Shown: positions 60,334-63,165 of the stretch, in pieces
Position numbering within the stretch: the stretch's first letter is position 1
How the letters are laid out: each line of letters begins with the position of its first letter
DNA from: an uncultured Chlamydiae bacterium
Lineage (GTDB): Bacteria > Chlamydiota > Chlamydiia > Chlamydiales > Parachlamydiaceae
DNA length: 64,000 nt
Assembly (NCBI GenBank): GCA_963830365.1
Contig: CAWHMU010000039.1
Location: 1 to 64,000, forward strand
Direction: 5' to 3'
Position numbers and translations under genes: made by a program
The notes under the pieces: generated by a model
Told to the model about the DNA's origin: nothing
The model's database searches: none
Seen by the model: only the letters and a program-made list of their open reading frames with translations

Positions 60334-63165
60334 ATGTCACTCATATCATCTCGAAGTGCATTTAACAATGGCTATATGCAAGAAAATAAGGATCAGGGCA
60401 CAGACATCAATACCAGACTGAAAAACGACGTTCCATCAAAAGTCAAAATCATGAAAGTCCAATACATAGTCAACCACTCAGACACCATTCAAAACTGTGT
60501 ATGGATGAATAGCAAAGATATCGAAGAGTTGTTCAACATTTGTCAGGTTGGCAAGCAAAATACCCCTTCTTCTCAAGCGCAGACAAGACATTCATATTCA
60601 AGGTTGCCATATCACTCACACATTTCTAAAACAACAACGCCGAGCAAAGTACATAAAGAAACATCCAATCATGCCGGCGATGCCCCGCGGCATAAATATG
60701 TTCGAATTGGAAATAGGGTTTATGCGGCCATAAAAAGATCTGGACTTGAGATAGGCGAAATCCTGATCAATCCTATTCAATTCAGGGAATCCATAGAGGG
60801 AATTTCCAACTTTACCACTCACGATACGGTAGCTGTAGAAGCATTTAAACAAGAGACACAAAAAAGTGCTCTCTTGCATCAAGGAATATTTCTGATCGGC
60901 AGGCATGATCATGAAATTAATGCCGAAAATGATGTCGATGAACAAAAACACCAAACATCAACTCCAAGGAAGATTGTGCTCGTCGATCTATTGCGAAATA
61001 GTTTTCAGGCCAATAACCTTTCAGACTACCTTAAAAAAGGCCAGCAACTTATGCAGTTGCTCCGAAATGGCTCTTCAGAAGTTCCGTTGGCTGCAACCTT
61101 GATCTCTGCTAACATCTATGACGATGCCATATCGATAGGAGAAGCTCCATTTTATCGCATTAGTCGAACGACACAGCTAGAGTTCGTTGCAGAAGCACAT
61201 TCAGGCATTGCTTTAATTGATAATGTCATAGAAAGCGACGACATCGACAGCTTTGATTTTACAGTGACTCCTTTCAAAAAAGCGAAACCATCTTCTGTGG
61301 AGGGGTGGAAAACCAGTATTCAACCTCTACCTTTAGCACTATCTGTGAACGATATTGAAAGTGCCATTCGTTATGCATTGGATGGAAAAACTTTGCTAAA
61401 GAATGAAAAAAATATTGTCCCGCATAATGGAGAATGGGATCTTGAAATCACTTTTAACGATGCCAAATTGAAGCAATATTCATCGTCTTCAAATTCAGGC
61501 TCAAGTTCACGACCAGGAGTTGTTTCGCCCTTGTCGCTATCGATGGCGTCAAATTATCAGTCGGCATATCAATTTACGCGTCAATCGCAAATTAAGCCAA
61601 ATCCTGGGGAGGGAATACTCTTCGTAGATGATCAGGCACAAGAGGCAAAAGAAGCGCATCTTGAAATCGTCGATTTTCAAAACATGCAAGGCATACCTTA
61701 TAAAAATGCTCCTTTTGTTTTGGAAAGGGACCTGAAGAAAGAACTACAAAAGATAAAACCCTCGCTTGCCAATGGGCAAAGAATCGCGATAGAGGTACCG
61801 TCAACAAAATGTCTGCTGGAACTCAAAGGGCCTTCTGCTAAAGGTGTCCTGCATAAGATCGATGAAAACACCCAAATGAAGTTTAGCGTCAAGGCAAGTC
61901 TGCCTGTGGTTTTGGGCGATCACGCCAACAGCCTGCCAATCAAAAAATTGCAAGTGACAGCCTGTCTCGAAAAACAACCCCTCAGCATACTTTCAAAGTC
62001 TGCTTATGCAGAGCAAACGTTTAATGAAGAACAACTGGAAAAAATGTTTTTTGAGAAGCTGACTGAAGATGGCATTTTCATTGGTCAAAGAATTCAACAG
62101 CAGCTTGACGATGGCGACAAGTTAATCTTCACTGTAGTTGAAATGGCTTTTGATGAAGCTGCGAAAAAAAGCGAACGCTTAACGATGCTCGGAAAACACA
62201 CCAAAGATACACAAGTTTCTTTTGTTGCCGAAGAAGAAGGCCGCTTGAAAATCTTAAGAAAAGAGAAAGCCCCACAGCATAAAAGCGCTGACGACATGAT
62301 GAAGGAATTCGAATTAGGAGGACTTTCAGATGAATTCAAAATAATCATTCGTGATGTTGTGCTTGCCCGCGACCCGTCGATGCAAAAGATCGTACAAGAC
62401 TTGCAAATCAAGCCGGTTAAAGGTTTGTTGCTATATGGTCCTCCAGGCACTGGAAAAACAACGTTGGCCCGCAAGCTTGGGAAAGTGCTTGGTTGTGAAG
62501 GCGATCACCTTCAAATGATCTCTGGTGCTGAAATTTGGAACAAGTGGGTAGGAAATTCAGAAGAAAATATTCGAAATCTTTTCGCCCCTGCCCGCCAGGC
62601 CTTCCAAGAATTGAAAGAAAAAAGCCCGCTATATGTCTTGATCATAGACGAGATCGATGCCATGCTTGCGTCACGCGATGAGGAAAGTAAAGTCAGAAAT
62701 AGTGTAGTCAATCAATTTCTAGGTGAACTCGACGGCTTAAATGAATTGAATAATATTTTTGTGGTCGGTTTGACGAATAACTTAAAAATGATCGACGATG
62801 CCGTAAAAAGACCGGGCCGCATGGAAGTCCATATTAAAATTGGGATACCGGATAAAAAAGGGCGCCGCGAGATTTTTAAGATCCATACAGAAAAGTTGGC
62901 AAACAAGGGATTGCTTGCCAAGAATGTTGACTTGGAAAAGCTGATCGAAGACACCCAAGACTGGGTAGGGGCCGATATTGAAGGGTTGGTACGCAAAGCT
63001 GCCAATCATCCGATAGAAAGGCTGTGTAAATTACCCGCCGATCAGCGCGACGGTCATCCACATGCTCAAATCACGCAAAAAGACTTTGAAAGCGCCCTTA
63101 AACAAGTGCAAATAGCCATCGGCAAAGAGCCGCTTGACATGTCTTACCGTTCTATGTTCCTGTAA
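60334..63165 (+). CDS. NSF/Sec18-like AAA+ ATPase (N domain, repeated Nc subdomains, single D1 ring)
   Basis: GGLSDEF..I.R, VKGLLLYGPPGTGKT, NKWVGNSEENIR.LF, IIDEIDA, VVNQFL...DG...LNNI.VVG.TN, RPGRMEV, GADIEGLVR; N-terminal NCVWMNSKD resembles the NSF N domain. Confidence 0.85.
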   Translation: MSLISSRSAFNNGYMQENKDQGTDINTRLKNDVPSKVKIMKVQYIVNHSDTIQNCVWMNSKDIEELFNICQVGKQNTPSSQAQTRHSYSRLPYHSHISKTTTPSKVHKETSNHAGDAPRHKYVRIGNRVYAAIKRSGLEIGEILINPIQFRESIEGISNFTTHDTVAVEAFKQETQKSALLHQGIFLIGRHDHEINAENDVDEQKHQTSTPRKIVLVDLLRNSFQANNLSDYLKKGQQLMQLLRNGSSEVPLAATLISANIYDDAISIGEAPFYRISRTTQLEFVAEAHSGIALIDNVIESDDIDSFDFTVTPFKKAKPSSVEGWKTSIQPLPLALSVNDIESAIRYALDGKTLLKNEKNIVPHNGEWDLEITFNDAKLKQYSSSSNSGSSSRPGVVSPLSLSMASNYQSAYQFTRQSQIKPNPGEGILFVDDQAQEAKEAHLEIVDFQNMQGIPYKNAPFVLERDLKKELQKIKPSLANGQRIAIEVPSTKCLLELKGPSAKGVLHKIDENTQMKFSVKASLPVVLGDHANSLPIKKLQVTACLEKQPLSILSKSAYAEQTFNEEQLEKMFFEKLTEDGIFIGQRIQQQLDDGDKLIFTVVEMAFDEAAKKSERLTMLGKHTKDTQVSFVAEEEGRLKILRKEKAPQHKSADDMMKEFELGGLSDEFKIIIRDVVLARDPSMQKIVQDLQIKPVKGLLLYGPPGTGKTTLARKLGKVLGCEGDHLQMISGAEIWNKWVGNSEENIRNLFAPARQAFQELKEKSPLYVLIIDEIDAMLASRDEESKVRNSVVNQFLGELDGLNELNNIFVVGLTNNLKMIDDAVKRPGRMEVHIKIGIPDKKGRREIFKIHTEKLANKGLLAKNVDLEKLIEDTQDWVGADIEGLVRKAANHPIERLCKLPADQRDGHPHAQITQKDFESALKQVQIAIGKEPLDMSYRSMFL

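Follow-up and report, generated by a model that had tools for sequence, protein, structure and literature searches.

The window analysed here, 64,000 nucleotides at positions 1 to 64,000 of contig CAWHMU010000039.1 (assembly GCA_963830365.1), belongs to an uncultured Chlamydiae bacterium of the family Parachlamydiaceae. Near its right end it encoded, on the plus strand, a 943-aa AAA+ protein resembling the eukaryotic N-ethylmaleimide-sensitive factor (NSF; Sec18 in yeast), here called the NSF-like protein. A first-pass annotation, based on the letters and their translated open reading frames (ORFs), had described it as an NSF/Sec18-like ATPase with four tandem N_C subdomains and no D2 ring, and had read it as a host-derived effector acting on host SNARE recycling. 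The observation was confirmed and the interpretation was supported in part. The ORF was as described, and all motifs quoted for it occurred in the translation (NCVWMNSKD, residues 54–62; YVRIG, 121–125; GGLSDEFKIIIR, 662–673; KWVG, 737–740; LNNIFVVGLTNN, 805–816; RPGRMEV, 826–832). The protein consisted of a leader, an N_N subdomain, four N_C units (R1 to R4), a D1 domain and a tail (Table 1). The gene was single-copy in its own genome, a draft of 2.73 Mb in 48 contigs (82% complete, 1.7% contamination).

Pfam recognised the AAA domain (AAA, residues 698–837, E 7.7e-32; AAA_lid_3, residues 864–899, E 2.1e-8). Since all 25 families listed mapped to residues 678–899, the first 650 residues were without a Pfam match. 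No NCBIfam model reached its cut-off, the best being CDC48 (TIGR01243) with 186.9 bits against a cut-off of 802.65. The choice of the upstream start codon was backed by a similar N-terminus in the relative P0003. The leader contained no acidic residue in its first 16 positions, and the NSF-like family had a median of 5 Ser plus Thr in residues 2–26, compared with 2 in 205 other AAA proteins. These features of composition are a weak hint that residues 1–35 are a candidate secretion signal, which we consider possible.

Type of the AAA domain

In a phmmer search against PDB sequences, NSF matched in one stretch (220.7 bits; query residues 553–932 to NSF 105–498) and Sec18 scored 219.2 bits. VAT and p97 outranked NSF only because the scores of two domains add up; the best single VAT domain reached 148.3 bits (VAT total, 148.3 + 125.7). 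With BLASTP, yeast Sec18 aligned over 405 residues at 215 bits (541–930 to 130–514), and the two domains of an archaeal Cdc48 at 163 and 158 bits. The segment SEENIRNLF was identical in the NSF-like protein and yeast Sec18. A 7-residue insert before Walker B was common to these two and aligned ungapped, whereas both archaeal Cdc48 domains required a 7-residue gap. A hidden Markov model (HMM) of the family AAA domain scored 8 full-length NSF D1 domains at 297–317 bits; among the matches listed, the D1 domains of two archaeal Cdc48 proteins reached 190 and 224 bits and their D2 domains 149 and 202, PEX1 152–159 and one FtsH 155 bits. When residues 650–943 alone were used as the query for homologues, the 120 proteins listed were mostly multi-AAA-domain proteins with summed scores, and NSF and Cdc48 were not separated.

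The phylogenies separated them. In a quick posterior mean site frequency (PMSF) tree computed from 94 AAA domains, family and NSF D1 were joined by a branch with a Shimodaira–Hasegawa-like approximate likelihood-ratio test (SH-aLRT) support of 100 and a length of 0.89, and the family alone had a support of 99. In a more careful LG+G4 tree of 104 rows, the uniting branch was supported at 100/100 (length 0.50), and a group of NSF, two viral 'Type 1' rows and P0065 at 100/97. The latter tree also included rows taken from chlamydial genomes and from viral contigs, and left out P0135, P0067, P0066, P0059, P0069, P0044 and P0053 (long branches or partial). Cdc48 D1, Cdc48 D2, PEX1 and FtsH all fell outside the NSF-plus-family branch, with Cdc48 D1 and D2 in separate groups. 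The AAA phylogeny proposed in the first-pass annotation thus placed D1 with NSF D1, and an identity as a generic Cdc48-like AAA protein was ruled out by the trees. The D1 family appeared as sister of the sampled NSF D1 rows and not nested among them. The host-derived origin put forward earlier was not established by this topology, as the sampled NSF D1 rows were mainly fungal and microsporidian and the trees were unrooted with respect to origin, the position of the root not being fixed.

The predicted structure of D1 aligned with NSF D1 (6mdp_B) with a Z score of 26.8, a root-mean-square deviation (rmsd) of 2.4, 272 aligned residues and 40% identity in VIA-align. The Z score did not discriminate between families (NSF 26.8, p97 26.1, PAN 25.5), whereas identity over the structural alignments was 40–42% for NSF/Sec18, 34–35% for p97 and 28–32% for PAN/Rpt. 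Because the Z scores were alike, the assignment of the AAA domain rests on sequence identity and the trees.

The active site was intact, as the first-pass annotation had noted for Walker A, Walker B and the arginine fingers. In all 27 family members compared, D772 and E773 of Walker B, the sensor residue N815 and R826 and R829 were invariant, as were G702, G705, G707, K708 and T709 of Walker A (P704 nearly so). In the pore loop W738 was conserved in at least 90% of the sequences and G740 in all, and G828 of the RPGR motif was also invariant.

N-terminal array

The four repeats were homologous to one another in profile–profile alignments with hhalign, in which all six pairs reached probabilities of 93–98% (E 4e-7 to 2e-12; R2 with R1, R3 and R4, 93–97%; R3 with R1, 97.6%; R3 with R4, 96.9%). 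As a control, the N_N segment matched each of the four repeats with a probability below 1%. Aligned to a profile of 8 NSF/Sec18 N regions (yeast numbering), N_N matched Sec18 25–106 (64.6%), R1 112–218 (95.7%, E 9e-9), R2 134–217 (33.4%), R3 115–211 (43.5%) and R4 112–219 (93.2%), so that each repeat mapped onto the N_C subdomain. The N_C nature of R2 and R3 follows mainly from their homology to R1 and R4. No segment exceeded 31% with an archaeal Cdc48-N profile.

The AlphaFold model of residues 36–645 had a predicted local distance difference test (pLDDT) score of 77.9 and a predicted template modelling (pTM) score of 0.70; in the whole-protein model, a 49-residue insert in N_N (residues 70–118) had a pLDDT below 50. 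The first 253–262 residues of the model (N_N plus R1) aligned best with the N domains of Sec18 (1cr5_A, Z 18.1, rmsd 2.6, 168/178 residues) and NSF (1qdn_A, Z 18.0, rmsd 2.8, 178/189 residues), followed by PEX1-N (Z 12.8), CDC48A-N (12.6), p97 (11.7), UFD1 (11.0) and VAT-N (8.8). Model residues 1–136 superposed on the double-psi beta-barrel domains 7dbo and 7dww (Z 10.5, rmsd 1.9), and the order of secondary-structure elements in the modelled R2 was that of R1. In Foldseek searches NSF/Sec18 came out on top, at E 1e-27 for the whole-protein model and at E 4e-8 for the N-terminal one. The NSF-N-like N-terminus and the four N_C-like repeats read from the bare sequence therefore held up in both profiles and models.

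In the whole-protein model, R4 with D1 (530–940) superposed on p97 N_C with D1 (105–465) over approximately 330 residues. By plain sequence, R4 with its linker found no match among PDB sequences in phmmer at E up to 1, which indicates that the NSF match reaching back to residue 553 was carried by D1; the N_C nature of R4 was visible only with profiles and models.

The array varied within the family. HMMs of the repeats detected four units in the 23 short members with a single D domain (all in the seed alignment) and, outside the seed, in P0037, in four members with two AAA domains and in a giant-virus ORF. Six divergent members (P0039, P0048, P0055, P0056, P0058 and P0064) had 0–3 detectable units. 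Four long forms of 1186–1215 aa (P0007, P0010, P0011 and P0130; loci L100, L102 and L108) had seven, in the order R1-R2-R3-R4-R2-R3-R4, which by sequence is a duplicated R2-R3-R4 triplet. The R1 HMM found one unit in each of three NSF/Sec18 proteins tested and none in two archaeal Cdc48 proteins.

C-terminus

The absence of a D2 domain, also noted earlier, was clear from the spacing: the protein ended 15 residues past the D1 lid and the stop codon lay 165 bp from the convergent next gene, which leaves no room for a D2. The only Walker A motif was that at residue 702. Some relatives contained a second AAA domain (P0118, P0123, P0127 and P0134; loci L098, L099, L101 and L103). Its identification as NSF D2 was rejected, since it aligned best to Sec18 D1 (115 bits) and nested in the tree inside the family, beside the D1 of the same proteins. 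Judged by these sequence comparisons, it is a diverged internal duplicate of the family D1.

The tail ended in Met-Phe-Leu, similar to an HbYX motif (hydrophobic, Tyr/Phe, any residue) with Phe in place of Tyr. The pattern [LIVMFWY][YF]x at the C-terminus was shared by 31 of 41 family members, among them the viral proteins (the fragments or partial sequences P0002, P0041, P0119, P0122 and P0133, and P0065, were left out of the count). The same ending occurred in 25 of 205 other AAA proteins, all of them Cdc48-type with two AAA domains, and the named ones were archaeal (MYA, MYV, LYS, LYI). In family members with two AAA domains an aromatic residue stood at the matching place within the linker (TFTP, QFIP, QFSP, KFVP). 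Fungal Sec18 had a similar hydrophobic-x-Tyr approximately 20–25 residues past D1; the alignment, made to see whether the tail is a remnant of the D1–D2 linker, was ambiguous there. HbYX tails serve to attach archaeal Cdc48 and PAN to the 20S proteasome.

Table 1. Features of the NSF-like locus, with positions in the 64,000-nucleotide window unless stated otherwise.
Feature	Position	Strand	Basis
Whole gene: 943-aa NSF-like 'Type 2' D1-only AAA+ protein	60334..63165	+	ORF list, translation; stop codon included
Leader, residues 1–35, disordered, Ser/Thr/Asn-rich	60334..60438	+	pLDDT <50 for residues 1–33
N_N subdomain, double-psi beta-barrel, residues 36–175	60439..60858	+	VIA-align, hhalign; disordered insert 70–118
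Repeat R1, N_C subdomain of NSF-type N domain, residues 176–300	60859..61233	+	hhalign, R1 HMM, VIA-align
Repeat R2, N_C-like, residues 301–434	61234..61635	+	hhalign; disordered Ser-rich loop 383–405
Repeat R3, N_C-like, residues 435–532	61636..61929	+	hhalign
Repeat R4, N_C-like, directly preceding D1, residues 533–645	61930..62268	+	hhalign, VIA-align
NSF-D1-type AAA domain with lid, residues 656–928	62299..63117	+	Pfam, VIA-align, trees
Walker A GPPGTGKT, residues 702–709	62437..62460	+	Conserved in 27 sequences
Pore loop 1 KWVG, residues 737–740	62542..62553	+	Aligns with KYVG of Sec18
Walker B IIDEID, residues 770–775	62641..62658	+	NSF-type insert 757–763 precedes
Arginine fingers RPGR, residues 826–829	62809..62820	+	Conservation
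Flexible tail ending M-F-L, HbYX-like, residues 929–943	63118..63162	+	pLDDT <50 for 931–943
USP/UCH-type deubiquitinase, 717 aa, convergent	63331..64000, on to contig position 65484	-	Pfam PF00443 8.6e-24, full ORF
recN, left flank	58031..59644	+	Pfam SMC_N; relatives 46–57% identical
Upstream intergenic region, start of 6.1-kb low-GC insertion (59645 to contig position 65761)	59645..60333	.	Synteny

Genomic context

The window lies in an 84.8-kb contig (C39). The NSF-like gene was preceded by genes for RNase HIII and RecN and followed by a gene on the minus strand for a 717-aa USP-type deubiquitinase, a DUF6268 gene, a resistance-nodulation-division (RND) efflux operon and an adenylate kinase gene. 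The USP gene was the sole USP match in the genome. Among six relatives of the same family, the DUF6268 gene came next after recN in three, at a distance of 195–249 bp. Because recN and the DUF6268 gene are adjacent in these three, the NSF-like and USP genes constitute a 6.1-kb insertion between the two. In one relative from another genus (genome G402, locus L184 8196..15093) the gap measured 7.1 kb, and its contents, three genes for USP deubiquitinases and one for an ankyrin-repeat protein, shared a strand. The remaining relatives showed a contig end after recN in one case and a different arrangement in the other. Eukaryote-like effector genes thus seem to accumulate at the junction of recN and the DUF6268 gene, which has the look of a hotspot for them.

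The GC content was 0.40–0.43 over positions 60000–63999, compared with 0.55–0.56 in recN and 0.486 in the genome, in line with the remark in the first-pass annotation that the locus was more AT-rich than recN. A second low-GC stretch (0.40), comparable to that of the NSF-like locus, was present at positions 1–2000. The spacer upstream of the NSF-like gene contained three copies of a 16-nt dispersed repeat (59677–59692, minus strand; 59865–59880, plus; 60200–60215, plus) and there were no others on the contig. Allowing up to 2 mismatches, the genome held 197 copies on 38 of its 48 contigs; the nearest one lay 134 bp before the start codon. Two of the copies form an inverted pair approximately 170 bp apart, and the repeat is possibly an element of the repetitive extragenic palindromic (REP) or miniature inverted-repeat transposable element (MITE) kind.

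Elsewhere in the genome we found a gene for the type III secretion export gate protein SctV (FHIPEP, 749.9 bits) and three full-length ATP/ADP translocase (TLC) genes. No match to the alpha-SNAP family (PF14938) was detected in the 82% of the genome represented. The proteasome family PF00227 had no match in 10 of 10 other genomes carrying the family; in the genome studied here it scored 19.7 bits, below the cut-off of 22.4, at the GC-rich end of a contig. Over its final 15 kb (approximately 160–175 kb) that contig, C42, had a GC content of 0.63 compared with 0.486 for the genome, which may point to a foreign island or a mis-join. The ORF concerned (locus L096, 1438..2247) encodes 269 aa and covers the PF00227 profile nearly completely (7–181 of 189); its product may be Anbu-like.

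Distribution and published relatives

With the N-terminal 650 residues as the query, 27 representatives were found (E up to 0.001) among 1.84 billion, of 156–1226 aa and nearly all of 800–1230 aa; from this low number we conclude that the family is small. Family members bore the source names Chlamydiales, Waddliaceae and, once, Verrucomicrobiota. Within the phylum, 13 of 401 genomes had a match, all from the same order, and none of the 46 genomes from the bacterium's own family did, in searches with a single divergent query that may miss relatives. The 12 other genomes of the order that carried a relative included some with just 2–6 contigs. The protein was at most 38% identical to any relative compared. 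A scan of genome contigs with generic AAA motif patterns kept 80 loci, all Cdc48-like of archaea or other bacteria, and no family member among them.

A giant-virus contig of 1.26 Mb (L110) encoded an 811-aa homologue with four repeats, a D1 domain and the C-terminus IYM, which grouped within the family with P0034–P0037, P0042 and P0015 (SH-aLRT 99). Two further viral contigs (L111 and L113) encoded NSF-like proteins of 759 and 690 aa, the D1 domains of which grouped with eukaryotic NSF; by the definition given in PMC9546365 they are 'Type 1'.

The family itself is already published, and the protein studied here is a new and divergent member. In its main text, the account of NSF-like genes in giant viruses (Traffic 2022;23:414, PMC9546365) distinguishes two kinds. 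'Type 2' is described there as divergent, probably monophyletic, limited to D1 and present in Mimiviridae and Chlamydiae; putative homologues have one D domain in Waddlia and a further D domain in Estrella, Criblamydia and two other chlamydiae (PMC9546365). According to the same text, the homology reaches into the N-terminal portion, the active sites are intact, the function is left open, and the NSF of Mimivirus is absent from virions but was detected in viral factories (PMC9546365), which lie in host cytoplasm. Bacterial 'Type 1' NSF with the canonical N-D1-D2 order is reported for Legionella santicrucis and two gut-metagenome bacteria (PMC9546365). The main text does not use the word 'repeat' for the N-terminal region and never mentions 'ubiquitin' or 'proteasome', though its supplements and figures may hold more. 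Measured against this main text, the array of N_C repeats (four, or seven in long forms), the HbYX-like tail and the association with USP genes appear to be new, and the duplication of D1 in the two-domain forms and the context of the insertion site add to the published account. The prior publication, the HbYX-like C-terminus and the USP linkage also go beyond the first-pass annotation. The family thereby gains an anatomy at domain level, composed of an NSF N domain, three or six extra N_C units, a D1 domain and an HbYX-like tail.

Comparison with known systems

With the Type 2 NSF-like factors the protein shares the single D domain, N-terminal homology, occurrence in chlamydiae and intact active sites, and the giant-virus homologue has the same four repeats and tail and belongs to the same clade. 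It differs in being a divergent member and in coming from a chlamydial family without a match in the 46 other genomes searched. NSF and Sec18 resemble it in the fold of the N domain (N_N and N_C), the D1 clade, the K-aromatic-V-G pore loop and the insert before Walker B. In contrast to them, the NSF-like protein lacks D2, has four N_C units instead of one, carries a 49-residue insert in N_N and an HbYX-like end, and is encoded by a bacterial gene.

Cdc48, p97 and VAT also have an N domain composed of a double-psi beta-barrel and an N_C-type unit (Z 11.7–12.6) and the same AAA fold of the classical clade (D1, Z approximately 26), and the C-terminus of archaeal Cdc48 is HbYX-like, as in the NSF-like family. 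A further likeness is that p97 associates with a deubiquitinase, as the NSF-like gene is linked to a USP gene. The NSF-like protein differs from them in having one AAA domain instead of two, in a D1 outside the Cdc48 groups and in an N domain that matched theirs less well than that of NSF. PAN, Rpt and Mpa are alike in the predicted single AAA ring, the aromatic pore loop, the flexible hydrophobic-Tyr-x tail and the AAA structure (Z approximately 25 to PAN/Rpt), whereas the NSF-like protein is without their coiled-coil/OB N-terminal domain, belongs to the NSF sequence clade and had no 20S counterpart in 10 of 10 other carrier genomes. Bacterial 'Type 1' genes are a further case of NSF genes of eukaryotic type in bacteria, and transfer is their presumable origin. 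Unlike the NSF-like protein without D2, they keep N-D1-D2 in the paper's description (PMC9546365).

Functional interpretation

On balance we think it probable that the protein, as a D1-only member of the Type 2 NSF-like family, is an exported and host-directed, ATP-driven unfoldase or disassemblase. Export is the most likely route to its site of action because the viral homologues can act only in host cytoplasm, the gene lies in an island of effector type, and a type III system is present in an obligate intracellular bacterium. Action on the host is further suggested by the patchy distribution (13 of 401 phylum genomes, none of the 46 of the own family). The NSF-like protein would be exported to the host cytosol and, with ATP, would form a single hexameric ring there unaided by a D2, which is an assumption. 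Its enlarged N-terminal array, with 24 N_C units per hexamer, would bind host adaptor or substrate complexes, and the KWVG loop would pull substrates through the pore, so that host protein complexes would be taken apart. By homology the default targets would be SNARE/alpha-SNAP complexes on the inclusion membrane or close to it, and by this analogy with NSF it is plausible that a SNARE is the target. The membrane-fusion machinery of eukaryotes has NSF as one of its hallmarks, and the presence of a stripped-down and rebuilt NSF in both chlamydiae and giant viruses, two unrelated kinds of parasites associated with amoebae, suggests a common way of host manipulation.

Several points weigh against this interpretation. 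The D1 of NSF alone is not known to form stable hexamers without D2, which puts a question mark over the assembly of an NSF D1 ring in its absence. A role related to ubiquitin or the proteasome would agree better than one on SNAREs with the HbYX-like tail and with the USP genes linked to the locus. Monophyly of the family (62 rows) was only moderate in the LG+G4 tree (72/61), compared with 99 in the PMSF tree, and the NSF sampling in the trees was narrow (8 rows, mostly of fungi and microsporidia, and 2 viral ones). R2 and R3, moreover, matched the Sec18 N_C profile weakly (33.4% and 43.5%). Two testable alternatives thus emerge, disassembly of SNARE/alpha-SNAP complexes and an unfoldase linked to ubiquitin and the proteasome.

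In the second of these, the HbYX-like tails would engage the host 20S proteasome, or the PUB/PUL cofactors that read the p97 tail, and the unfoldase would feed degradation together with the USP. The hydrophobic-Tyr/Phe-x end follows a flexible Pro/Gly/Lys-rich linker in the 31 of 41 members and was found elsewhere only in Cdc48-type proteins (the 25 of 205). USP genes were located near the NSF-like gene in two lineages: the one USP match of the genome studied here was adjacent to it, both matches in G144 lay within approximately 8 kb, and two of four in the syntenic genome G120 stood beside it. This linkage points to the ubiquitin system at least as much as to SNAREs. With no PF00227 match in 10 of 10 other carriers, any proteasome partner would be that of the host. 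Nevertheless, no joint action of NSF and proteasomes is known, the aromatic residue is kept inside the linkers of two-domain forms and the motif may therefore be structural, a free carboxyl end perhaps being unneeded, and fungal Sec18 may have a similar motif after D1, at the ambiguously aligned position. The linkage may reflect no more than an effector island, as a relative has USP genes at the same site without an NSF-like gene, and in G039 and G349 the USP genes were not adjacent. We regard a ubiquitin- or proteasome-directed unfoldase as unlikely. Slightly less probable still is a more specific form, in which this NSF-derived single-ring unfoldase of chlamydiae and giant viruses would act on the host ubiquitin–proteasome system as a cap or adaptor supplied by the pathogen: the tails would dock on 20S or PUB/PUL proteins, the four- to sevenfold N_C array would select clients and the USP would trim ubiquitin. 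If true, the pathogen would come equipped with a degradation machine of its own, directed at host proteins.

A role inside the bacterium, such as that of a quality-control unfoldase or in the preparation of secretion substrates, would involve no host function and seems similarly improbable to us. Many bacteria use Cdc48-like AAA proteins themselves (the 80 loci of the contig scan), the genes on both sides of the locus are ordinary bacterial ones, and export of the NSF-like protein is, after all, inferred. The family is, however, common to giant viruses, which have no bacterial cytoplasm, and the N-terminal query met it in few genomes of the phylum and in none of the own family. The low-GC insertion beside a eukaryote-type USP gene and the lack of a proteasome-type peptidase match in 10 of 10 other carriers also argue against an internal role, and to our knowledge the bacteria have no clients of the ubiquitin or SNARE type.

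Loss of the oligomerising D2 and amplification of the binding subdomain to four units, seven in the long forms, would suit a decoy that soaks up host alpha-SNAP or another adaptor of NSF or p97 and so blocks SNARE recycling, for which unfolding would be unneeded. We consider such a decoy quite unlikely, since Walker A and B, sensor 1 and the arginine fingers were invariant in 27 of 27 sequences and W738 was conserved in at least 90%; the conservation of catalytic and pore residues indicates selection on ATP hydrolysis and threading.

That eukaryotic or viral DNA was mis-assembled or mis-binned into the bacterial genome, as the GC content below that of the flanks and the 48-contig draft with 1.7% contamination might suggest, is highly improbable: the uninterrupted ORF is internal to its contig, both flanks are syntenic with relatives, a genome-wide repeat precedes the start codon and relatives occur in 12 other genomes of the order. 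Synteny and the dispersed repeat exclude a mis-assembled foreign fragment for practical purposes, and a chimeric eukaryotic contaminant, a possibility raised in the first-pass annotation, was ruled out by the same two lines of evidence and the relatives.

Additional loci

In one chlamydial family (f5; L105 10562..14038, L107 148..3873 and L106 5918..9394), the NSF-like gene was divergently oriented to a conserved gene for a protein of approximately 1160–1240 aa without a Pfam match. In genome G380 (L106) this partner gene was apparently split into three ORFs. On contig C39 itself, downstream of the RND efflux operon, positions 73476–79160 (L003 10477..16161) contained an ORF of 1894 aa, likewise without a Pfam match.

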